A stretch of DNA of 32,000 nt from Microcystis aeruginosa NIES-843 (GCF_000010625.1 NC_010296.1:2610001-2642000); one strand, 5' to 3'. Shown: positions 1,454 through 22,265, numbered from the stretch's first letter. Notes: generated by a model not told the origin, from the sequence alone. Made by a program: numbers and translations.

Positions 1454-2497
1454 TCTAACTATGGGGGTATAGAACAAAGATGGTTGCTAGTTGAAAGTCA
1501 AGCTAGACAAGAATCAGACTTGAAAAAATTAGAGAAAAAAATCGAGCAGGAAAAGAATTCTGCCCAAGAAAAAATCCGGCAACTATCCCGAAGAGAATTT
1601 GAGAATAGAGCGGTGGCGTTGGCGATAGCCAAAGGATTATCTGACTCCTTAAAATCTCATCAGTTAACGGAGATTAAAGTCAATCTCATTCCGCCTGAGT
1701 CCCAGGGGTCAAAACTCAAATCAAAAGACGATTTACCCTCTCAAAGCTATCAAGTTCAAGCCGAATTAGAGTTGAATTTGGCAGCGATTGAGAGGCTAAA
1801 GAAACGAGCAGGACGATTCGTTTTAGCAACTAACGATTTGGAGAAAAAACGATTGAGCAGTGAGGATATACTCAAAAAATATAAGGGGCAACAAGCTCCA
1901 GAAAGAGGATTTTCTTTTCTCAAAGACCCCTGCTTTTTTGCTGACAGTGTCTTTCTCAAATCTCCCCATAGAATCGAGGTCATGGCCATGCTCATGGGCT
2001 TGTGCCTGCTGGTTTATACTATTGGTCAAAGACAACTTCGTTTAAGTTTAAAACAGCAGGAGACGGGACTGAAAAATCAGTTGGGTAAGTTAACTGACCG
2101 ACCGACGTTACGCTGGATATTTCAGGGCTTTCAAGGGATTCATCTCGTCCGTATTCAAGACAATCAAAAGATTAGCAACTTAACGGATGAGAGGCGCAAC
2201 ATTTTGAGATTTTTCCCCAAACCTTGCCAGGAATATTATCTCTTATCTTGACCAGATGGATTGACTTCAAGGGGTGACAAAACAAAGCGAGCAACTGGAA
2301 CATCTCCCCCTAGATGTTAAGTCTGATTGCCTAGTCATTCTCAACAAGCACTGTTTATTGAGAATGACCGGGGGAACTCTGAAATTTTCGGCTTAGTTGC
2401 CGGCAGCTTGCCGCCAACTCACTCCTCTAGATAAGTATTTTGACTCACGCCCCTTCCTCTTTTGAGACGTTGTGACACTTAGGGTGCGGAATGTGGG
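1454..2497 (+). mobile_element. IS1634-like (IS4 superfamily) IS remnant, right-hand part
   Basis: The 5'-truncated transposase is followed by the terminal repeat AGGGTGCGGAATGTGGG at 2481-2497. That repeat is identical to the termini of the MITE at 12326-12605. Confidence 0.65.
1457..2251 (+). pseudogene. IS1634/IS4-family transposase, C-terminal fragment
   Basis: The frame is open from 1457 (..GIEQRWLLVESQARQESDLKKLEKKI..RFVLATNDL..ILKKYKGQQAPERGFSFLKDP..) with no N-terminal half. It is cut by the ISKra4-like end at 1453. Confidence 0.65.
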
Positions 2498-3263
2498 ATA
2501 AAAGATATGAAGGAGTTTGCCTGGTTTGTTTATCTTCTCGCAGTTTGATGAACTTTTTCTGCACGGACTGCATAACTGACTCCAGATCTGGAGGCCAAAC
2601 CTCTGTATCTTTTAATGAGTTCAATTCATTTAATAGTTCTCGTGAAAATATACCCGTTTGTTCGTCGCCTTTATTAATCGCATATTCTCCCGGATTAGCC
2701 GCCAGCATGACCATTTGTTGTTGACTTGGCAAATGTTTACCGATAGGGGGAAGATCGTCAGGTGGAGTTATCTTTAATAATTGGGAATTAGCGCAAGCAT
2801 CGAAGATTAGTAACTGCTGAGGTAAATTTTTATATAAATCGGTCTGCATAGCATTAAGCTGGGCAGTTAAATTAAGGTTCTTCAAGTCCTCAATTGTCGC
2901 ATCGGCATAAATCAATCGACGATCGCCTTGAGGGACGATCCAACCGTGTCCCGACCAAAACAAGAAAAACAAGCTTGCTGTTTTTTTTCTCGCTTCCTCG
3001 CGCAGAGCTTTATTGACTATATCTTTGGTCGCTTCTAAGGGTTTACTGTTGATCAGACTGGTAATCTCGTCAACGATTCCAGTATTGCGATCGAGTGGAG
3101 ATGCGAAAACCGAAATATTTTCAGGAGGCACATTGCGATATCGTAACCATTGACAGAACCGATAAACATCATTGACCGGACCGTTCAAATCCGGAATAGC
3201 ATTAGAATCGGCATACCTTTCAATGCCGACCAGAATAGCTTGCGTTGTCGATGGTTCAGCCAT
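2445..3263 (-). CDS. Stand-alone caspase/metacaspase-fold (peptidase C14-like) protein, 3' end replaced by IS terminus
   Basis: AILVGIERY..LNGPVNDV (first strand/helix), FFLFWSGHGW (catalytic His) and LLIFDACANS (catalytic Cys). The last 17 codons plus the stop (2445-2497) are IS1634-like terminal-repeat sequence. Confidence 0.75.
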   Translation of the reverse strand: MAEPSTTQAILVGIERYADSNAIPDLNGPVNDVYRFCQWLRYRNVPPENISVFASPLDRNTGIVDEITSLINSKPLEATKDIVNKALREEARKKTASLFFLFWSGHGWIVPQGDRRLIYADATIEDLKNLNLTAQLNAMQTDLYKNLPQQLLIFDACANSQLLKITPPDDLPPIGKHLPSQQQMVMLAANPGEYAINKGDEQTGIFSRELLNELNSLKDTEVWPPDLESVMQSVQKKFIKLREDKQTRQTPSYLLSHIPHPKCHNVSKEEGA

Positions 3264-4419
3264 TAACTATCTTCTCCATCTTCTGCCAAACGGCATCCCA
3301 AACCTTGTCATTATTCCAATATGCACCGTGAGACTCGGGGAACGGTTGTTTACTGTCGATTTCCACATCTTCTATCTTTCCAGGGAATATTTTCTCATCC
3401 ACATAACTGAGGAAATCGTTGCGATCATAAATATTTAACCAATCGGGGAAAGTATCCGGCAGCTTGGCATTGGGATTATATTCCATCCCCACCAAAGCAT
3501 TCAGTTCATAAAGAATAGGAGATTGAGAACCGATCGTCACCAACAAAGCCACTTGTGGTAATTGTTGTTCTAATAGCAAATCGACGGCAATAATACCACC
3601 CAAACTATGGGCGATTAATACGGTGGGATATTCCAGACGTTCAACGGTTGTGCGAACAAAGTCTCTAAGCTTTTGTCCCCTTGCTTGATACATCAAAATA
3701 TCTCCCAAAGTGCCACTATATTCTTCCGTGAATCCATTTCGCTTTCTTTGGAGATTATTCTGAATAATACGCCTGATCGTACCAGAAATCATCTCTTTTA
3801 TGCCGGACAAAACTCCTTTTTCCGTACCCCCTAATTCCGCCGCTATTTGCTCGACAATTTGATCTCGTAATCCCCCATTAACCGATAAGGCGAATTCGCC
3901 ATAGTTATCCCTTACCAAAATAGCACTCTGGGCTACCAGCGCACGGGCGATCGCTATGCGGTATTCTCCTAATGGTTCCGTGGCGGATTCGATCGCTTTT
4001 TGATAATCGCTTTCGTTGACGATAATGGATTGGGATTGACTAAAAAACTGGCCAATGCCAGCCTGATCGAGCATTTCTTGCAGATTAGAGGATGGATTTA
4101 AGGCTCGAACCCGATTATCCAAATCCTCGCCTAGCTTTTCCCCAAAAACAGCCCCTTTGTCCTCGGAACTTATGGTTAGGATTTGCAGTTCGATGAGTGG
4201 ATCCTGATATAGTAACTCCCATAAACCCAGAACGTAGTCTTCATCAGTTAAATCGGTTTCTGAGGCTTTTTTTTGATCCGACACTGGAATAGATAGTCCC
4301 CCAGCATTTAACGTTGTGCCGAGGGAACCACCCCAGTAACACTTTTGAAAACGCAAATTTTCATTGCGTTCTTTCAATTTTCGGATAATGATACTAAAAG
4401 TTTTGCGGGAGCATCTCAC
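3256..4419 (-). CDS. Alpha/beta-hydrolase (serine esterase/lipase-like) with long helical N-terminal region; 5' end probably disrupted by MITE
   Basis: Nucleophile elbow VLIAHSLGG, with candidate acid NIYDRNDF and His PESHGAYW. Its stop overlaps the downstream caspase-like start by 8 nt. The only start is a GTG (4419) inside the MITE terminal repeat, directly after a TAA. Confidence 0.7.
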   Translation of the reverse strand: MRCSRKTFSIIIRKLKERNENLRFQKCYWGGSLGTTLNAGGLSIPVSDQKKASETDLTDEDYVLGLWELLYQDPLIELQILTISSEDKGAVFGEKLGEDLDNRVRALNPSSNLQEMLDQAGIGQFFSQSQSIIVNESDYQKAIESATEPLGEYRIAIARALVAQSAILVRDNYGEFALSVNGGLRDQIVEQIAAELGGTEKGVLSGIKEMISGTIRRIIQNNLQRKRNGFTEEYSGTLGDILMYQARGQKLRDFVRTTVERLEYPTVLIAHSLGGIIAVDLLLEQQLPQVALLVTIGSQSPILYELNALVGMEYNPNAKLPDTFPDWLNIYDRNDFLSYVDEKIFPGKIEDVEIDSKQPFPESHGAYWNNDKVWDAVWQKMEKIVNG

Positions 4420-4588
4420 TTACGCGATAAGTAATTATACTTAGCCTAAAAGCCACTCTTAATCGTGTCTTGGAACGAAATAGAGGCTTTTAAAGACTGC
4501 GTACATGGAGAATTAAAACAAGAATTACCCTCGAAAAGCCTATTTTTCCACTAAGTATTTATGCTCATTGCAAAGGTGAGATGCTCCC
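4407..4588. mobile_element. 182-bp MITE with ISKra4-like termini
   Basis: Terminal inverted repeats are GGGAGCATCTCAC (4407-4419) and GTGAGATGCTCCC (4576-4588). The right ~40 nt matches the IS end at 1414-1453 (CATTGCA.A.GTGAGATGCTCCC). There is no ORF and no recognisable TSD. Confidence 0.75.
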
Positions 4589-5487
4589 TGTCAAATGCGG
4601 TTAATGCTACCATCAATCCCGACGAAGCAATTGGACAAGTAATTATTACTGACACCCTACAAAGCAGCATTACTAGAACCTTACCCAATAATGTGGAAAA
4701 CCTCAGACTAATTGGCAGTAATAATATTAATGGTACGGGTAACGCTGGTGACAATAAAATCACCGGAAATAGCGGTAACAATATCCTCGCTGGTGCTAAT
4801 GGTAACGATATTTACTGTTTCAATGCTTCAACCCCATTAGGAAGCGATACCATCCAAGAAACTACCACTGGTGGTATCGATACCCTCGACTTTACTGGGA
4901 CAAATACCGCAGTAAGAGTTAACTTGGGGACTACTGCTGTCCAAACCGCCGTCACCAATAATCTAAAATTGACTTTTTCGGCAAATAACACCATCGAAAA
5001 TATTATTAGCGATAGCGGTAATGACCGACTAACCGGGAATAGCCTTAATAATACTCTAACTGGTGGTGGTGGCAACGATCAATTAACCGGTCAAAACGGA
5101 AACGATAGGTTAATTGGTGGTTTTGGTGATGATTTACTTACTGGTGGTAATGGTAGCGATAATTTTATCTTCAATAGTAGTAATTTAGGCATCGATGCCA
5201 TCAGCGATTTCACTTCGGGCAGTGATAAAATAGTATTAAGTAAAGCCATCTTTACTGCCTTACAAAGTATCATTGGCAATGGCTTCAGTCAACCGGCTGA
5301 ATTTGCCAGCGTCGCTGACGATGATTTAGTCGCCACTAGCAGCGCTTTTATCGTTTACAGTAACAGCAGTGGCAGTATTTACTACAATCAAAATGGTAGT
5401 GCTGCTGGTTTAGGAAGTGGCTCTGAATTTGCCAATTTGTTGACTGTTCCTACCCTGATAGCGGCTGATTTCGCACTGATAAATTAA
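4561..5487 (+). pseudogene. RTX / hemolysin-type calcium-binding repeat protein, C-terminal fragment
   Basis: Nonapeptide GGxGxD repeats are present (GNSGNNILAGANGND; GGGGNDQLTGQNGNDRLIGGFGDDLLTGGNGSDNFIF), as is VENLRLIG. The first 28 nt of the ORF are MITE sequence, so the native N-terminus is missing. Confidence 0.65.
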
Positions 5488-12296: not shown

Positions 12297-12325
12297 TCGA
12301 ACCTAAAATCCATTTTTAATTTAAT

Positions 12326-12605
12326 CCCACATTCCGCACCCTAGTCGTTGAAATCAAAAGTTGCTCTAGCCCTTGTATAGTAAGACTTTTAGCGATTACT
12401 AAGAATTATGAAGTGTCACACTCTAGTCAGCGATCGCCAGCTTAATGAGAGTTGATCTCAATAATTTGGTATCAGAGCTATCAGATTTTTAGGGCTAATT
12501 GTGCGTCTGCTGGGCAAACAAATTAGCCTGTAATTCAGAGCCGGCAATCGTTTTGACGATTTAGATAAAATTTTCAATGTGACAGTTGAGGGTGCGGAAT
12601 GTGGG
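12326..12605. mobile_element. 280-bp MITE with IS1634-like termini and 6-bp target-site duplication
   Basis: 17-bp perfect TIRs: CCCACATTCCGCACCCT (12326-12342) and AGGGTGCGGAATGTGGG (12589-12605). It is flanked by TTTAAT at 12320-12325 and 12606-12611. Its end is the same sequence as the IS end at 2481-2497. Confidence 0.85.
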
Positions 12606-12645
12606 TTTAATTATAACCAGCTACTTATCTAAAATAGATAATGTG

Positions 12646-14399: not shown

Positions 14400-15638
14400 T
14401 TAATTAACTTCTAACCCTGGAATGCTTAACTGTTCGGTTTTTGGCTGTGTTTCCCCGATATAATCCCCTTGCAACATATTAATTAAACAGCCACCAAGAT
14501 GATAGGCCATATTAACGGGAACCGCGTTACCAATCTGTCGATATTGAGAGGTTAAATTACCGGTAAATTGCCAATCATCGGGAAAGGACTGCACTCGTGC
14601 ATATTCTCTCACCGTCAAAGGACGAGTTTCTTGGGGATGGCATCTTTCTGTTTGGGTTTGTGCCGGACTACAGGTAATAGTTAAAGCCGGTTCATCCCAA
14701 GATAATCTTTTAGCATATCCTGTCCGTCCGCCGTGATTTTTGAGACTATTTTTCATATATTCTTTTTGAATATCCATCGGCAAATTCCGCCAATTTCCTC
14801 CTGGGGGAACTAAGGACATAATCTCTTTTTTTCTTTCTTTATATTCTACTCCTGGAGAACTTGGACAATTCTCTAGAGCTTTTTTCAGAGAAATAGTATA
14901 GTTTCTATATTGGGGAAAAATGGGTTTAATATTTAGGTCTTGACGGGTGGCGATAATAATTAATCTTTCTCTTTTTTGGGGAACATCGAGAAATTGGGCT
15001 GATAAAACTTGATAAGCAGCATAATAACCGATTTCCTGTAAAGCTTCCAGCATTAATTGCAGAGTTTCTCCTTTTTTATTGCTTAATAATCCTCGAACAT
15101 TTTCGGCTATAGCGATTTTAGGTTGCACTTCCTGTAAACAACGAGCAAATTCAAAAAATAGGCTTCCTCTCAAATCTTCTAATCCTTTTCCTAACCCAGC
15201 ATAACTAAAAGGTTGGCAGGGAAAACCTCCAGCTACAATATCTATTTTGTCTCTAAAATTGGAAAATTTAATCTTTTTTATGTCTTGATTTATAACATTC
15301 CATTGCGGTCGATTAAGTCTTAAAGTATTAACACAATCTTGGTTGATTTCCACCAGTAATTGCGTTTTTAGTCCCGCATTTTCTAAACCTAAAGCCATAC
15401 CACCACAACCAGCAAATAATTCAATAACTGTGTAATTAGTTGGCTCAACAGTTTGTAAGATTTTCAATTCTCCAGGGAATTGGTTATTTTTAAGATTGGT
15501 TAATTGCTCGAGATCAAATAGCCAATCAACTTGATTAATTTTCTGACCTTTGATTAATTTTTTCTTTTGCCATGTTAGTATTTCTGCGGTAGTTACACCG
15601 AGAATATTAGCGGCTTTTTGTAGATTTACCTGAGTCAT
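14400..15638 (-). CDS. DNA (cytosine-5) methyltransferase with N-terminal helix-turn-helix extension
   Basis: Motifs I ELFAGCGG, IV GGFPCQPFS, VI ENVRGL, VIII QKRERLIII and X GNAVPV. The ~60-aa N-terminal extension VNLQKAANILGVTTAEILTWQKKK looks like an HTH. The ATG at 15638 is preferred over the TTG at 15644. Confidence 0.92.
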   Translation of the reverse strand: MTQVNLQKAANILGVTTAEILTWQKKKLIKGQKINQVDWLFDLEQLTNLKNNQFPGELKILQTVEPTNYTVIELFAGCGGMALGLENAGLKTQLLVEINQDCVNTLRLNRPQWNVINQDIKKIKFSNFRDKIDIVAGGFPCQPFSYAGLGKGLEDLRGSLFFEFARCLQEVQPKIAIAENVRGLLSNKKGETLQLMLEALQEIGYYAAYQVLSAQFLDVPQKRERLIIIATRQDLNIKPIFPQYRNYTISLKKALENCPSSPGVEYKERKKEIMSLVPPGGNWRNLPMDIQKEYMKNSLKNHGGRTGYAKRLSWDEPALTITCSPAQTQTERCHPQETRPLTVREYARVQSFPDDWQFTGNLTSQYRQIGNAVPVNMAYHLGGCLINMLQGDYIGETQPKTEQLSIPGLEVN

Positions 15639-15686
15639 AACCAATAATTAGCAACTTATCTACCTCTCTATTATACATCAAAGTAG

Positions 15687-16454
15687 CTAAACTTGATAAA
15701 GTTTTTTTTCGATTTTCCTGACTGTCATCTTTAACTTATTCAGGATAGTTTCATAATCTAAGTCCAACATTGACCAAAAAGCTTGCCCTGCTAATAGCTC
15801 AATATTATTCTCTTTAGCTTTGGTTTTGCTAATTGTCCAAGAATTGCCCATATCTAAAGCAGCGGCAAAAACTGAGTTAGGATGTATTTTTAATTCATTG
15901 ATACTCCGATCACTCTGGCTACCAGTAAGAGTATCTTTTTTAGTTTTTAATTGAGTGTATTTGATTATTCCTTGATTAAAAACTACTAAATCCACACCTT
16001 TGATTTTAAAATTTAGAATTTTTTCTGGTACAAAAACCTGTGAACTAATAGAAGCAATTTCTTCTAAAGTATGACCTAGACTTTCCGAGATAAGATTGAC
16101 ATATTTATTCGATAAGTACAAGTTTTCACATTGAGCAAACTCAAAAATATTTTTAAATCCTTTCTTCTTTTTGAGAGATATATTTTTAAAATCCTGTTTT
16201 TCTTTCAGGATTTTTTCAACTACTTTAGACTGGAACTCATCCAAAGCATCATCGATTTTTTGATCCCTATTGTCTGCAATGTCTGTGTCTGTTTTTCTAT
16301 TTTCTTGAAAATATTCAAAAATGAAATCATCAATTAGACGACAAATTTGATAAGTATCTACCAAGTCATGAGTAACAAAGGTAGGAATTTTGATCGAAGG
16401 TTTCTGTAAATTAATTTCTTCTAATAATTGGGTCAAGTTATGGCGATAGCTCAT
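15687..16454 (-). CDS. Putative type II restriction endonuclease (cognate of the adjacent methyltransferase)
   Basis: 255 aa, same strand, 48 nt upstream of the MTase. It has a possible PD-(D/E)xK-like core KGVDLVVFNQGIIKYTQLKTKK. The overall layout is reminiscent of TdeIII/Sau96I-type enzymes, but I cannot verify that. Confidence 0.55.
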   Translation of the reverse strand: MSYRHNLTQLLEEINLQKPSIKIPTFVTHDLVDTYQICRLIDDFIFEYFQENRKTDTDIADNRDQKIDDALDEFQSKVVEKILKEKQDFKNISLKKKKGFKNIFEFAQCENLYLSNKYVNLISESLGHTLEEIASISSQVFVPEKILNFKIKGVDLVVFNQGIIKYTQLKTKKDTLTGSQSDRSINELKIHPNSVFAAALDMGNSWTISKTKAKENNIELLAGQAFWSMLDLDYETILNKLKMTVRKIEKKLYQV

Positions 16455-16546
16455 TAGATTTAGTTGCTGGGTTGGGATTGTTTACTTTTTGCTTAAAACT
16501 ATTAATTTAATTGCCGCCGGTGGTAATGTCAACAAATAGTATGTAA

Positions 16547-16606
16547 GTTCGGAAGAACCTGAATTTTCAGATATTGGAATTTAACGGGGAGTCTGATCAT
16601 ATACAC
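16547..16606 (+). pseudogene. IS200/IS605 tnpA (Y1/HUH transposase) remnant, left piece
   Basis: VRKNLNFQILEFNGESDHIH reads straight into ALIEYPPKLAIS... at 19635 once the IS1380 and one ACAC copy are removed (HUH motif DHIHAL). The N-terminal ~60 codons are absent. Confidence 0.7.
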
Positions 16607-17080
16607 CCCGCATTTCTCACAAAAAGTACGATCACCAACCCCCGAAGCCTTACAAAATCTGGGTTTTGACTGGGTGATCGCCTTGTAGCAAAAACGACAG
16701 TGTGTTGTTAGGATTCAACTTAAGCTCATCATCAATTAGACCTTGAAAAAAGAACAAATTTAAAATGCGTATTTTTAGGTTAATTAGTTGATAAAGTCTC
16801 AATTTTAAGTAGAGAATGAAGTCAAAAGCTTGCTATAATTTAATCATTAAAACTATTTAAAGTATGTCAAGTTTATGACTCCTAGTTCAGACCAGTCTCG
16901 ACTCAATCAATTAAATTTTGGAAACCTCAATGGAAGACAAGTAATCGCTAATTTTGAGGGAGGAAAAATCACCTCAGATGCAGGAATTATTTTGATGGCA
17001 GAGTTAGACCAAAAGCTAAAAATAACGGCTCGGTTTGCCGAATGTTTTCGAGATTATCGAAATTCATCCTATCTAGATTA

Positions 17081-18114
17081 TAGCAATTCTCTGACTTATG
17101 AGGTACAGTAGCAACAGTGAGTAAACCAATTGCGAATATCTTTTTGAGTAACTTCTAACATAGCCAATTCAATCCCTTCTATTAAGTCTTTGTAAGTTCT
17201 CGCCTTCAGTTTTCTTAACGTCGCTTTCACTTTTGACCAAAAGTTTTCAATAGGAGAGAATTCGGGAGAATAAGGAGGTAAATAGATGAGTCTAGCTTTT
17301 TCTTGTTCGATTATTTCTCTGACCATTTCTCCGAGATGAATCTTGGCGTTATCCATGATCAGACAGTCTCCTTCTTTAATTTTTGGCAGCACTTCCTTTA
17401 GAATAAATCCTTCAAATGTTACCGCATCCACTGCACCGTATATGTTGACTGATGCGACAACTTTTTCTAAGCTTATAGCACTAATTATTGAAATATTTCT
17501 CCCTCTTTTTTGTGGTTTTCTTCCCCGAGCTCTTCGGCCAATTAAGGCTCTAGCATAGAGTCTCAAAAGGGCTAAATTTACCCCCGATTCATCGATGAAA
17601 ATTAGTTTTGATGCCTCAATTTCCCGAACTTCTGACCAGTATTCCACTCTTTTTTGCTGTACCCTGTCACTTTCTTTTTCCGCCGCGTGTAGTGTTTTTT
17701 TTTGAAACTGTAATTGAGTTTTTGCGTAAGCCGCCCCAGGGTGGCTCTACTGACTTTCACCTGTGTCTTTTCATACAGTAAGTCCGATAATTCTTCGAGA
17801 GTTGCATCATTGTTAGCTTCGATGATTTCTATTAAAATTATCAGTTGTTCACTATTTAACTTGGTTGGCGGACTTCCCCCTTGCGGACGAGGACGGATAT
17901 CTCCTGTTTCTTTATGTTGCTTCAATAACTTCTGAATAAAGCTTTTAGCCACGTCAAATCTCTGGGCTAGTCCTCGAATGGAAATTTTTTCTTTCTTCCA
18001 GACATCGATAATTTTTTGGCGAAAATCTACGGAATAGGGTCTCATAGGAAGCTGGTAAGTTCTATTATTTGTCTATTTACTTTCTATTGTACCTCATAGC
18101 TCCAAGAATTGCTA
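17081..18114 (-). mobile_element. IS630-family insertion sequence nested in the IS1380 transposase gene
   Basis: 27-bp imperfect TIRs: TAGCAATTCT...ATGAGGTACA (17081-17107) and TGTACCTCAT...AGAATTGCTA (18088-18114). It is flanked by TA at 17079-17080 and 18115-16. Confidence 0.85.
17096..18045 (-). CDS. IS630-family transposase in two overlapping frames (needs -1 shift at an A9 run)
   Basis: The HTH part is 18045-17602 and the DDE part is 17647-17096 (LIFIDESG, IMDNAKIH, LPPYSPEFSPIENFW). The frames join at the T9 run 17695-17703 (A9 on the coding strand): FKKK|TLHAAEKESDRVQQKRVEYW. Confidence 0.8.
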
Positions 18115-19630
18115 TATTCAGTTCATGAACTACTCGCACAAAGAGTTTATGGGATAGTTTTGGGATATGAGGATGTCAATGATCATGATAAATTACGTCA
18201 TGCTCCAGCTTTAGCAATAGCATTGAAAAAACTAAATTTTATTGACTCAGCCCAAGCAAATTTAGCGGGAAAAAGTACAATTAATCGACTAGAATATTGT
18301 CCGGAAACAGTCATCAATCAAGAGAACAGTCGTTACCATAAAATCGAGCCTAACCCCAAAGAAATTGAAAAAGCTTTTGTGGACATCTTTCTAGAATCCT
18401 ACAAAAAGCCACCGAAACCAATTATTTTAGACATGGATGTCACCGATGACCAAGTGCATGGAAATCAAGAGGGAGCGTTTTTCAATACTTATTATAAAGG
18501 AGTGTGTTATGCTCCTTTGTATATTTTCTGTGAGCATCATTTATTAGTAGCTAAACTCCGGTCTTCTCATGTAGATACTGCTGGGGGAGCATTAGAAGAA
18601 TTGCAGCGAATAATCGGTATAATTCGAGAAAAATGGTCAGATACGCAGATATTAGTACGAGGAGATAGTGCCTATTCCCGTGAAGATATCATGAAATTTT
18701 GCGAAAGTCAAGCAGGAGTTGATTATGTTTTAGCAATGGCAACGAATAGTCAATTAAAATTACGAGCGACCGATGTAATTGAGAAAGCTAAGGCAGATTA
18801 CGAGCAAAGACTTCAGCCAGTTACTGAATTAATGGAGACGTTATTTTCTCCCGATGAAGAGTTAGGAGAATTGGCGAAATTGGTACCAGAATCGACTTGG
18901 TATCGTTCCCTATGTTATCAAACCCAAAAATCCTGGAGCCGTTCAAGAAGAGTGGTGACAAAAGTTTGTCCTGGTAGTGAGGGCGTAAAAATTCGCCACG
19001 TTGTGACTTCTTTACCTGCATCAAAGATTCCCCCATCTAAACTTTACACTGAAAAATATTGCCCCAGAGGGGAGAGGTCAAATCGAATTAAAGAGCAACA
19101 ATTAGACTTATTTGCTGACCGGAATTCGACACAGACATTTGAGAGTAATCAATTAAGACTTTGGTTGTCATCAATGGCTTATGTTTTAATGCAAGCTTTT
19201 CGTCAAAATTGTTTGGCTAAAACTTCTTTTGCCAAAGCGACAGTGGGAACAATTCGCCTTAATTTCCTTAAATTAGGAGCTAGAATTACTGTTAGTGTCA
19301 GAAGAATTTTAATCGCAATTGCCAGTTCTTGTCCCTATCAAGATATTTTAGCGATAGCTTACTCTAGAATTCAAGCGATAGCGGGAACTGGATAAGTTGA
19401 AGAGTTTTCAAAGATCATTAAATAGTCTTAAAAATGGCTGCTTATAAATTCAGCTAACTTTGTCGTGAACATTTTCCCTAATTGACGGAATTTTTCCAGT
19501 AATTCAGGAATTTTTTGATTAGTTTAGTCAGATTATTCCTTGATAACTAAGCGGGTTTCTCTTATTTTTGAAAAACACCAACTTTTAACCTCCAAATTAG
19601 GTTCTTAATTCAGTTTGTGAGAAATGCGGG

Positions 19631-19901: not shown

Positions 19902-20989
19902 TAAGTACCTAGGCAAAATTAATTACATACTCGCCTCCAAAATTGTCCAGCACTTTTTTAACGTAAGCGAGGAGGCTCTTTCGGTCTTTATAGGCGCTAA
20001 ATTCAATCCATTCATATTTTAAAAATCTCCATAATATTTCAATTAAATTTAAATGAGGTGAATAAGTGGGCAACCAAAATATTTTCAAGTTTTTCTTTTC
20101 CCATTCCTCAAGTTTCTCCATAAATGCCTCGCTGGTATGAATGGAAGCTTGGTCAATTATTATGACAGTTTTTTTCTGTATATTTTGGCAATATTTATCC
20201 AGAAAATTAATAACTATCTCGCTAGTAACCGTTCCGACCTGTGTCTCATAAAATAATTGATTATCTCGTTTCATTATTCCTAAAATATTTAGTCTTTTAC
20301 CTTCAATTGGTGGTAACTTTATCGTGGTTTTTTCTTCTTGCCAAGCGTCAGGAATACAAGGCTTTGAATCCCCTCCCATTTCATCCAAATATCCTATCTC
20401 AATCTCTCCTCTTTTTTCCTGTTTTTTTAGTTCTTCTAAAATAGGTAGTTTGACCTCAAGCTCCCACTCATCAGGGGTTTTGGCGACCCCTCTTCTCACC
20501 CTTTTCCACCTCATGTTGATTTTTTTTATGAGTCTTTTTATCTTGTCTTTGCTTACGGTTAATTTCCCTTCTTCTACAATTTTTATCTGGATTTTTTTTA
20601 AGCTTTTCGGTTCTTCTTTTACCCAGTCAATAACTTGTTGACCTTGTGCTTCTGTCAATTTAGGTTTTCTCCCTCTTCCTCGACGATTATAAAAACCAAT
20701 TAGTTTTCTATCTTCCCAGGCCGTCAACCAATTATAGATGGTCTTTCTCGTAACTCCAAATATTCCGCTCAATTCTTCTATCGTGGTTCCCTGAAAACTT
20801 AAGAGTATACATTTCGCTCGCTCTCTTACTTGATGATGTTTACTAGCTCGATAAATTCTCTCTAGCATTTTCTGGCTCTCGGGGTTTAGGTCTCTAATCA
20901 ATCTCATTGTATTTTCCTGCTGCTTCGTTTTTTTATGTATTATACTTCTTAATTTTTTATTTGGGTAATTAATTTTGCATGACTACTTA
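19902..20989 (-). mobile_element. IS630-family insertion sequence, apparently intact
   Basis: 25-bp TIRs: TAAGTAcctagGCAAAATTAATTAC (19902-19926) and GTAATTAATTTTGCatgacTACTTA (20965-20989). A single 332-aa ORF lies inside. Confidence 0.8.
19909..20907 (-). CDS. IS630-family transposase (332 aa, single frame)
   Basis: N-terminal HTH (GVTRKTIYNWL) and a DDE region (GYLDEMG, IIDQASIHTS, LPTYSPHLNLIEILW). Confidence 0.9.
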   Translation of the reverse strand: MRLIRDLNPESQKMLERIYRASKHHQVRERAKCILLSFQGTTIEELSGIFGVTRKTIYNWLTAWEDRKLIGFYNRRGRGRKPKLTEAQGQQVIDWVKEEPKSLKKIQIKIVEEGKLTVSKDKIKRLIKKINMRWKRVRRGVAKTPDEWELEVKLPILEELKKQEKRGEIEIGYLDEMGGDSKPCIPDAWQEEKTTIKLPPIEGKRLNILGIMKRDNQLFYETQVGTVTSEIVINFLDKYCQNIQKKTVIIIDQASIHTSEAFMEKLEEWEKKNLKIFWLPTYSPHLNLIEILWRFLKYEWIEFSAYKDRKSLLAYVKKVLDNFGGEYVINFA

Positions 20990-22265
20990 TGATACCTGTG
21001 TTGTACTGCAAAAACTGCTTGTGACATAAAATCAGCACGAGTCAGACAGTTTTCGATAACAGCAGCCCTTGATGCGCCACCCGTGAAAAAATCTTGGGGT
21101 TTTAGGGGTTGTGATGCCCCATTATGACAAACCTGAAAAAGTTCTGCTCTATATCTGGTGTTATACCATTTTTCTAAATTCCTGACAGACATAGAGCTTC
21201 TAAAATCCAAGACCATCCCGTCAAATACCCGATCGTGTCATTGGATAGAGAATTTAAAAGATGGTAAAGTTTACTTCTTAAGTTATCAAGGGAGTTAAAA
21301 TTGCCCCAGGCCAATAGGTTTTTCAAATATAGCCAAACTCTCTCAATTGGATTTACTTCTGGACAATAGGGAGGTTGATAAAATAGGATAATATTATCAG
21401 GTATTTCTAGGTCGGTCGCCGTATGTGCGGGAGCATTATCTAATTGAATAATATGTAATTCCTCAGAAAAAGCTTGAGAAAAAAGCGTTAAATATTGATT
21501 AAAACATTCCCCATCTAAATGAGAAAATTCATAGAAAAAACTGCTACCTGTTCGAGGTTCTATTAAACCATAGAGCCAGAGATATTGAAAATTATACTGA
21601 AAATTACCAAGGGGCTTTATGCCTTTAATTGTTATTTTATCTCTGACAATGGTATGACAGCCGAAGCGACTTTCATCTTGACACCAGAAGCGGACTTTTA
21701 AATATTGACTAACTTTTTCAGATTCCTTTTCTAGTAAAGCTTGTAGCTGTTCAGATAGATTATTTTGGAATATTTTTACTTCTCCTGGTAATTGTTTTAA
21801 ATTTTGAGGTCGAGCCACTTTTAATTTAGCTTGTAATTCATTTCTTACGAGACGGTAAACAGTTATATAACTGGTGGGTATTTCTAAAATAATTGATACC
21901 CAAAAATGAATTTCTTTATAACTTTGAAATCCTTCTGGGTCTTTTAATTCATTCTGAATTAGAGCGGCTTCTTCCACTGAAATCTTTTTGGGTCTTCCCA
22001 GTTTTTCTGGTTCTGACAAGAGATTTTCTATCCCTCCTTCTCGATAACAACTTAACCAGCGATGAATAGTTCTTTCTGAGCGTCCTATTAACACGGCGAG
22101 ATGACGAACCGTTTCTACCTCCTTAATTTTTAGTAGATACAGGGATTGTACTTTAGCAAAGTTTAAAGAGGTTACTTGTTGCTTCAACAAGGATTTTAAG
22201 TCTTCTACTGACTCAGCAACATTAATATTAGGGACTCCACTCATTGCCTTTTTACCACACAAACT
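20990..22265 (-). mobile_element. Second, unrelated IS630-family insertion sequence abutting the previous one (ends approximate)
   Basis: A transposase ORF plus weakly matching termini (..TGTGTTGTA.. near 20997 and TACCACACAAACTATA at 22250-22265). The boundaries are not resolved to the nucleotide. Confidence 0.6.
21174..22244 (-). CDS. IS630-family transposase (356 aa from ATG 22244)
   Basis: HTH (SERTIHRWL) and a DDE region (RFWCQDESRFG, QLDNAPAHTA, QPPYCPEVNPIERVW). The upstream TTG at 22262 lies in the terminal repeat. Confidence 0.88.
   Translation of the reverse strand: MSGVPNINVAESVEDLKSLLKQQVTSLNFAKVQSLYLLKIKEVETVRHLAVLIGRSERTIHRWLSCYREGGIENLLSEPEKLGRPKKISVEEAALIQNELKDPEGFQSYKEIHFWVSIILEIPTSYITVYRLVRNELQAKLKVARPQNLKQLPGEVKIFQNNLSEQLQALLEKESEKVSQYLKVRFWCQDESRFGCHTIVRDKITIKGIKPLGNFQYNFQYLWLYGLIEPRTGSSFFYEFSHLDGECFNQYLTLFSQAFSEELHIIQLDNAPAHTATDLEIPDNIILFYQPPYCPEVNPIERVWLYLKNLLAWGNFNSLDNLRSKLYHLLNSLSNDTIGYLTGWSWILEALCLSGI

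Follow-up and report, generated by a model that had tools for sequence, protein, structure and literature searches.

How should a pair of overlapping genes be understood when both of its outer ends consist of mobile DNA? This question is raised by a stretch of 32,000 nucleotides (nt) from Microcystis aeruginosa NIES-843 (NC_010296.1:2610001-2642000; hereafter "the window", meaning the whole stretch, with positions counted from its first letter). Two minus-strand open reading frames (ORFs) lie there, one encoding a caspase homologue (2445..3263, 272 amino acids (aa), ATG start) and the other a putative alpha/beta-hydrolase (3256..4419, 387 aa, GTG start), and they share 8 nt that hold the ATG of the caspase gene and the TGA of the hydrolase gene. 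A preliminary description of this DNA had recognized the two overlapping ORFs, with coordinates that all proved correct, and had taken them as one unit of alpha/beta-hydrolase and caspase, a view that our analysis supports. It had proposed that the pair was either a self-contained two-gene module or one orphaned from its sensor by insertions. We report here that, very probably, the pair belongs to a VMAP-MoxR-vWA ternary conflict system as its insertion-damaged upstream arm, and is likely to be an uncoupled and probably dead remnant. Systems of this kind have been described computationally before, and the window holds a degraded instance of one.

More than 15 uninterrupted alleles (L001, L008, L009, L011, L013 and L016-L026; related loci are cited throughout by such working labels) align to the window from 2498 to 4406 only, the lower edge of the alignment spanning 2498-2509 across these alleles and the upper edge lying at 4406. 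The terminal repeat of an insertion sequence (IS), CCCACATTCCGCACCCT, takes over at 2497 and runs towards lower positions, and beyond the upper edge begins a miniature inverted-repeat transposable element (MITE; Table 1). The preliminary description had placed mobile DNA at both outer ends, with the GTG in a MITE repeat and the end of the protease gene in an IS1634-like repeat, and it is found exactly there. The IS is uninterrupted at L003, where its 529-aa transposase scores 377.9 bits on the NCBIfam IS1634 equivalog NF033559 (cut-off 100) and matches DUF4277 and DDE_Tnp_1. At the same locus the MITE has inserted cleanly, with 8 bp duplicated (GCAAAACT), and the 5′ end of the hydrolase gene stands on its far side. 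In the window, the second GCAAAACT copy and hydrolase codons 1-~21 are missing from that side; the far flank is the interior of an unrelated RTX-repeat gene, and at L004 it is another sequence again. The hydrolase 5′ end has no match elsewhere in the 32-kb window. Because the far side of the MITE is an RTX gene without the duplication, as opposed to the hydrolase 5′ end in L003, the comparison indicates that a further rearrangement at the MITE took these codons and the native upstream region.

What follows the pair where it has not been cut? In the intact alleles the order is hydrolase (402-404 aa), caspase-EAD2 (378-389 aa), EAD2-VMAP, that is, a protein running from EAD2 to VMAP-C (534-545 aa), an AAA_5/MoxR ATPase (~360 aa) and a vWA-FGS protein that ends in FGE-sulfatase (FGS; 870-960 aa). 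This operon was seen in L001 (Nodularia spumigena CS-586/05), L008/L009, L011 and L013 (Microcystis) and L016-L027. In Nodularia L001, Microcystis L011/L013 and many metagenomic contigs the pair heads the five-gene operon with the 8-nt overlap, and the same -8 overlap is present in L016-L028 and L062. Pfam matches in intact loci comprise EAD2 (PF19956) on both the caspase and VMAP, VMAP-C (PF20028), AAA_5, FGE-sulfatase, bAvd and RVT_1, and the EAD2 of the caspase and that of VMAP from one operon are 31% identical over 80 aa. The fifth protein is called vWA by its position and its homology to the partial fifth ORF of L008, the Pfam match in L011/L013 being FGE-sulfatase only and the Pfam vWA domain (VWA_CoxE) being found only in the more divergent L002 protein. 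The order VMAP-MoxR-vWA is kept in L008, L011, L013, L016 and L021, and in intact loci the N-terminus of MoxR carries, ahead of Walker A, the motifs W[QH]PFNG and PPWRxF.

VMAP-MoxR-vWA ternary conflict systems were described computationally in 2020 (Kaur, Burroughs, Iyer, Aravind 2020, eLife 9:e52696; PMC7159879). According to that work, the N-terminal motifs WxhapG and PsWRxa are unique to the MoxR of VMAP systems, and the caspase of these systems always has a neighbouring alpha/beta-hydrolase gene (PMC7159879), which in the window is present as well, adjacent and overlapping. Because gene order, domains and MoxR motifs match PMC7159879, the intact operon is identified from its sequence as the VMAP ternary system of Kaur et al. 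2020. Of the claims in the preliminary description, the one that places the pair among the NTPase-driven systems for conflict or cell death found in colonial and multicellular bacteria is supported by the intact operons. The implied novelty of the pair falls away, the alpha/beta-hydrolase-caspase pairing in VMAP systems being explicit in PMC7159879, and so does the STAND/NACHT type expected of the NTPase, which is a MoxR AAA+ ATPase in the close clade, with NB-ARC/TPR only at more distant loci. At L011, bAvd, a reverse transcriptase gene and a further FGS gene come after the operon, at 15355-18242. A 180-nt template repeat at 17021-17200 of this locus has matching variable repeats in both FGS genes, at their 3′ ends, and the mismatches fall at template A positions; these differences are the signature of a diversity-generating retroelement (DGR), which L011 is read as carrying.

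The 272-aa protein of the window matches Pfam Peptidase_C14 (PF00656) at E 2e-15 (57.5 bits, cut-off 21.4), and its catalytic His106 (SGHG) and Cys157 (DACAN) show no variation in 41 relatives. In a PADLOC scan it matched the generic "caspase" model only. The EACC1-associated caspase (NCBIfam NF047832) was rejected as a candidate, with 49.2 bits against a cut-off of 140 and with an alpha/beta-hydrolase as the 5′ partner. A PDB sequence search with the caspase profile returned nothing at E <= 0.01; a structure search with the caspase model gave 190 matches at E <= 1e-3, led by MALT1 paracaspase (E 2.6e-9) and followed by caspase-9, caspase-7 and metacaspase-9. The caspase relatives, ~78 in number, are mostly 378-389 aa long, and the window protein aligns with them up to residue 255 only, beyond which the intact caspases run into a linker and the PF19956 EAD2. 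Neither the Pfam scan nor the alignment to intact alleles found EAD2 on the window caspase. The alignments thus indicate that ~130 C-terminal residues, linker and EAD2 together, have been lost, and that the "bare" caspase is a truncation artefact and not a native architecture. A model of caspase-EAD2 (pLDDT, the predicted local distance difference test score, 81) shows the caspase fold complete at 1-256, disorder in the linker (265-281) and, at the C-terminus, a domain of ~six helices (290-380). As predicted by this model, the IS cut where the last strand ends, leaving the catalytic domain essentially whole and the adaptor missing. The C14 caspase fold that had been proposed for this protein is therefore borne out by Pfam and the model, and its supposed minimal, extension-less state is not, the EAD2 extension having been cut off.

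For the 387-aa protein, Pfam gave sub-threshold matches only, around the HSLGG elbow (Abhydrolase_6, 20.7-21.8 bits vs a cut-off of 26.3), and PADLOC and NCBIfam scans gave no match. A profile search of the PDB returned marginal matches only, the best being a putative lipase at E 0.014, and Foldseek with the hydrolase model returned weak ones to small lipases, monoacylglycerol lipases and esterases (best E 5e-3, probability ~1.0). A candidate catalytic triad is formed by the Ser of HSLGG, the Asp of NDF and the His of SHG, in canonical alpha/beta-hydrolase order; these residues, Ser272, Asp335 and His364 (Ser287, Asp350 and His379 in intact alleles), are invariant in 71/71 full-length relatives at 31-99% identity. 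Likewise, His10-Gly11 (HG) is found in 69/69 of the relatives that have a residue in that column. The AlphaFold model, made for the intact allele P0002 with 114 aligned sequences (pLDDT 85), has an alpha/beta sheet with strands at 5-9, 38-42, 281-286, 305-311, 341-346 and 364-368 and an all-helical insert from ~74 to 274 (~200 aa). The modelled Ser, Asp and His follow strands 281-286, 341-346 and 364-368, respectively, in this predicted placement. The preliminary description had seen an alpha/beta-hydrolase core preceded by ~250 aa of unplaced helices: the core is upheld by the triad and the model, and the helices turn out to be an insert within the fold instead of a preceding domain.

Intact hydrolases are ~402-404 aa long and the relatives mostly ~390-415 aa, with an N-terminus of the form M..D.VF(V/I)HGTGVREPAYSKTFSII. 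In the window protein the first ~20 residues of the intact hydrolase are swapped for MRCSR, and by comparison with intact alleles the N-terminal strand 1 and the HG oxyanion-hole motif are absent. Because both are missing, the window hydrolase is probably misfolded or inactive. As a separate observation, Arg242 of the intact protein (Arg227 in the window, codon ~3741-3739) is invariant in 71/71 relatives and lies in a low-confidence stretch of the insert (211-250), at the end of QRKR. It could be named as a candidate cleavage site for a basic-specific caspase homologue, which is pure speculation.

How regular, then, is the pairing of the two genes? The hydrolase alignment, scanned against metagenome contigs, picked out 80 loci (31-99% identity), 71 of them with a downstream ORF, in which the caspase was judged by a hidden Markov model (HMM) built from the window family. 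The ORF after the hydrolase starts with a caspase domain at 67 of these 71 loci. According to Pfam, the caspase is fused to or followed by EAD2 at 17 loci, VMAP-C at 14 (direct fusions) and NB-ARC or other STAND NTPases with TPR at 14, and the next genes after it include AAA_5/MoxR (22), VMAP-C (13), FGS (12) and EAD2 (10). A self-contained two-gene module, one of the two alternatives in the preliminary description, is contradicted by this neighbourhood, in which the caspase at 67/71 loci is joined to, or precedes, modules of the adaptor, VMAP or NTPase type. The distance separating hydrolase and caspase genes extends from small overlaps (-4, -8) up to ~+290 nt; because of this range, adjacency is read as the rule of the family and translational coupling as a feature of only part of it.

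The genes behind the caspase are not the same everywhere. In Nostoc linckia NIES-25 (L014, 9001-13246) a hydrolase ~42% identical precedes first a 482-aa protein, in which the NB-ARC match is faint, and then a TPR protein, and 482-aa proteins at the same position in metagenomic loci start with a caspase domain. Together with L014, six further loci (L037, L039, L043, L053, L058 and L071) have the hydrolase ahead of a caspase-NB-ARC protein with TPR partners and not ahead of VMAP/MoxR/vWA. By these gene orders, the hydrolase-caspase cassette is common to different NTPase chassis. From 1.84 billion representatives, HMMER recovered 682 relatives of the hydrolase with E <= 1e-30 and 1630 with E <= 1e-10, and among the 150 hydrolase matches listed nearly all are stand-alone proteins of ~380-440 aa.

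Are the downstream genes still present in NIES-843? A tblastn search with intact-locus proteins (VMAP from L008) found no VMAP, MoxR or vWA genes in the window. None of the 83 VMAP homologues listed comes from the 5.84-Mb NIES-843 chromosome, an indirect negative in that the chromosome beyond the window was left unread, and a scan of genome contigs with VMAP gave three loci, none of them from NIES-843. Contigs encoding the two window proteins were all short metagenomic ones. The exact 272-aa and 387-aa sequences each occur twice in M. aeruginosa NIES-843, the hydrolase as BAG02468 (MAE_26460) and BAG02687 (MAE_28650) and the caspase as BAG02469 and BAG02686, in opposite order; by locus tag the pairs are MAE_26460/26470 and MAE_28640/28650. 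Because the IS- and MITE-derived junction residues are identical in both copies, it was an already-truncated block that was duplicated.

Other Microcystis alleles carry the two insertions separately. At L005 an IS-cut caspase stands beside an intact hydrolase, and at L097 the hydrolase is MITE-cut, and the caspase reaches the linker and the first part of EAD2 before the contig ends; at L096 the caspase is frameshifted. In environmental Microcystis the caspase, IS-cut or intact, occurs with the hydrolase, MITE-cut or intact, in all four pairings, which may have come from allele recombination, repeated insertion or chimeric assembly. The alternative that the pair was "orphaned from its sensor by the insertions" is backed by these data, since the intact alleles go on into EAD2-VMAP, MoxR and vWA-FGS.

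Beyond anatomy, junctions, neighbourhood, folds and residue conservation, we infer an order of signalling and an action of the hydrolase. Kaur et al. consider that EAD2 brings signalling peptidases to VMAP, place EAD2-linked peptidases in the signalling layer and regard VMAP-linked peptidases as signalling parts that release vWA-fused effectors (PMC7159879). DGR-diversified VMAP systems, with the vWA/lectin target proposed as the sensor, were reported by Dore et al. (2024, PNAS; PMC10907252). In the intact system, a variable, DGR-diversified lectin/vWA protein would sense the invader (after PMC7159879 and PMC10907252), and MoxR would remodel the complex using ATP. The EAD2 of VMAP would then recruit the caspase through EAD2-EAD2 pairing, by analogy with what CARD domains do for caspase-9, and the clustered caspase would turn active and cleave its targets. 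The always-adjacent, adaptor-less hydrolase would act together with the caspase, and the outcome would be death of the infected cell. In NIES-843, the IS1634-type insertion would have taken the EAD2 of the caspase and everything downstream, and the MITE insertion, followed by the rearrangement, strand 1 and the HG motif of the hydrolase and its native promoter. Because EAD2, the downstream genes and the hydrolase 5′ end were removed in this way, the pair would be uncoupled from any sensor.

Among the mechanistic options for the hydrolase we favour, tentatively, a caspase-licensed lipase/esterase co-effector, given that its triad does not vary and that lipases are its nearest folds. A somewhat doubtful alternative makes the hydrolase a regulator or substrate of the caspase, for instance an inhibitor or chaperone that keeps the caspase inactive, or an esterase removing a small-molecule or acyl mark, with the caspase as sole effector or relay. 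It would explain why the hydrolase has no EAD adaptor and the coupling modules are all on the caspase, and it fits the tight linkage and frequent overlap of the genes, the invariant Arg (R242 intact, R227 window) in the low-confidence insert and the placing of EAD2-linked peptidases in the signalling layer (PMC7159879). However, a Ser-Asp-His triad and HG motif that stay invariant at 31-99% identity would argue for real catalysis and against a purely structural role, and among solved folds lipases, monoacylglycerol lipases and esterases come nearest. An unlikely elaboration is that hydrolase and caspase form a chassis-independent two-enzyme executioner, shared by VMAP/MoxR/vWA systems, caspase-VMAP fusions and caspase-NB-ARC-TPR proteins, in which the caspase would cleave the helical insert at the invariant Arg in its flexible segment and so switch on a lipase-like killer; as an add-on, the adaptor-less NIES-843 copies would be a deregulated death module involved in bloom collapse. 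If true, this would be a bacterial protease-licensed membrane-damaging effector.

Could the truncated pair nevertheless be working alone in NIES-843, as an adaptor-less free caspase with or without the hydrolase, serving as a cell-death or stress module transcribed perhaps from the MITE? This is improbable. Both ORFs are open, the caspase domain with its His/Cys dyad is complete, the ratio of nonsynonymous to synonymous substitution rates (dN/dS) is low, and NIES-843 has two genes for each of the identical truncated proteins, which turn up in several metagenomes as well. The hydrolase, however, is without the strand 1 and the HG motif that is kept in 69/69 relatives with a residue there, the caspase partner at 67/71 loci carries or precedes adaptor, VMAP or NTPase modules, and the L096 caspase is already frameshifted. 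The low dN/dS would mostly reflect pre-insertion history, the disrupted alleles being young. As for transcription from the MITE, its promoter-like site is the single one in 2.5 kb vs 6.1 expected from shuffles, which is fewer than chance and is not used as evidence. Less probable still is that the block from IS to MITE is the cargo of a composite mobile unit with the two genes as passengers, even though the junction-derived proteins are found twice in NIES-843 in opposite order (BAG02468/02469 and BAG02686/02687) and the MITE far flank differs among the window, L003 and L004. The two flanking elements have unrelated ends, IS1634-type CCCACATTCCGCACCCT on one side and a GGGAGCATCTCAC-type MITE on the other, which are not ends for one transposase, and on this ground a composite transposon was rejected; moreover, the MITE of L003 is a simple insertion with target duplication inside the original gene, and homologous recombination between dispersed IS/MITE copies (segmental duplication or inversion) is simpler.

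Several points weigh against the reading of the pair as a damaged and probably dead VMAP arm. The fate of the downstream genes in NIES-843 rests on an indirect negative, and the hydrolase stays below the Pfam thresholds, with a Foldseek E of only ~5e-3. A literature search found no experiment on any VMAP system or hydrolase-caspase pair, and every mechanistic step is thus inferred. The complete catalytic domain of the caspase may have deregulated activity. Lastly, the 1909 bp that are left contain no frameshift or stop, so that decay of the kept coding sequence is not visible, and when the window is compared with intact alleles dN/dS is 0.10-0.26, no different from comparisons among intact alleles; this suits a recent disruption without proving that function was lost. 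The disrupted alleles hardly differ from one another; because of this and of a dN/dS at the intact level, the disruption is taken from these comparisons to be recent, and dN/dS says nothing on current selection.

Table 1. Features of the overlapping gene pair and its mobile-element flanks in the window.
Feature	Position	Strand	Basis
Caspase catalytic domain, codons 1-255, with His106 and Cys157; ends at the last strand of the fold	2498..3263	-	Alignment, model
17 codons and stop from the terminal repeat of the IS1634-type element, in place of ~130-aa linker and EAD2	2445..2497	-	Alignment to intact alleles; L003 comparison
Overlap of the two genes, ATGGCTGA	3256..3263	-	Read in the window; closely related alleles overlap likewise
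Hydrolase remnant, residues ~21-404 of the 404-aa intact alleles, with HSLGG Ser272, Asp335 and His364	3256..4406	-	Alignment, invariance, AlphaFold2 (AF2) model
Fortuitous GTG start and four codons (MRCS) from the inner terminal repeat of the MITE	4407..4419	-	ORF reading, alignment to intact alleles
Retained copy of the 8-bp target-site duplication, GCAAAACT	4399..4406	.	Comparison of L003, L005 and window
MITE of 182 bp with ~45-nt imperfect terminal inverted repeats GGGAGCATCTCAC...	4407..4588	.	Repeat analysis; clean insertion in L003
IS1634-type element, right-hand part; transposase C-terminal fragment 1484-2251; broken at 1454 by another IS	1455..2497	+	Uninterrupted transposase of L003

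The surroundings of the pair are rich in mobile DNA. Positions 1-2497 consist of nested mobile elements, among them an IS630-type DDE_3 transposase fragment at 53-640. Two minus-strand ORFs at 637-1310 have no family matches, and beside them the end of a nested IS carries a terminal repeat (1417-1454) with 87% identity to the MITE end at 4552-4589. Fragment, ORFs and repeat all lie inside the IS1634-type element. Another MITE, of ~290 bp at 12321-12610, has inverted ends of 22 nt (TTAATCCCACATTCCGCACCCT) that match the end of the IS1634-type element at 2497, the shared repeat measuring 17-22 nt. Inside the MITE next to the hydrolase lies a sigma-70-like TTAAGA-17-TATAAT (4462->4434, minus strand), 15 nt upstream of the hydrolase GTG, and the same MITE also holds the ATG of the RTX/HemolysinCabind-repeat ORF (4561-5487), which looks like the C-terminal part of a larger protein. 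Further on, the region is rich in IS, with a Dcm-type cytosine methyltransferase, an IS1380-family transposase and two IS630-family transposases at 14400-15644, 18109-19395, 19909-20907 and 21174-22262.

For annotation, the NIES-843 272-aa "caspase family protein" and 387-aa "hypothetical protein", two copies each, would accordingly be described as insertion-truncated remnants of a VMAP arm, and surveys that count Microcystis orthocaspases as cell-death genes should not take the 272-aa protein for a minimal orthocaspase. The qualitative rule of 2020 can now be quantified, with the hydrolase followed directly by the caspase at 67/71 loci, and the cassette is seen on STAND/NB-ARC chassis as well. 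The hydrolase family is sizeable and has no curated Pfam or NCBIfam model; its biochemistry is the only part of this system with real upside.

How does the pair compare with systems already known? With Microcystis orthocaspases such as MaOC1 (PMC7935541) the caspase shares the host genus, the Peptidase_C14 family and the His-Cys dyad, whereas natively it carries EAD2 and belongs to a VMAP operon behind an alpha/beta-hydrolase. The EACC1-caspase membrane system (PMC7159879; NF047832) likewise has two genes, with a constant 5′ partner and a 3′ caspase, but the 5′ partner here is a soluble alpha/beta-hydrolase of ~400 aa and not the EACC1 protein with its single transmembrane segment. The DGR-diversified sensors of Dore et al. 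(PMC10907252) have their counterpart in L011, where an FGS/C-type-lectin domain bearing a variable repeat closes the vWA protein, with bAvd, reverse transcriptase, template repeat and a second target behind it. In contrast, the VMAP examples of that paper have trypsin-type peptidases, a hydrolase is mentioned in it 0 times (PMC10907252), and no DGR parts were found in the window. Closest is the VMAP ternary system itself (PMC7159879): the intact pair lies directly 5′ of EAD2-VMAP, MoxR and vWA in the published order, the MoxR N-terminal motifs are present, the caspase adjoins an alpha/beta-hydrolase and EAD2 links the caspase to VMAP. Unlike that system, the window copy is a remnant without EAD2, VMAP, MoxR, vWA and the hydrolase N-terminus.

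The last comparison is with the apoptosome, in which caspase-9 is recruited by CARD-CARD pairing. Here as there, a helical adaptor on the protease would pair with the same adaptor on an NTPase-controlled hub, the adaptor in our model being a six-helix domain behind a disordered linker. In contrast to the apoptosome, the part of the NTPase is played by a MoxR AAA+ that has a vWA partner, and not by a STAND ATPase. The analogy between EAD pairing and CARD-CARD recruitment in the apoptosome has been drawn before (PMC7159879; PMC8195603), and the likeness of EAD2 to CARD is one of the mode of working.

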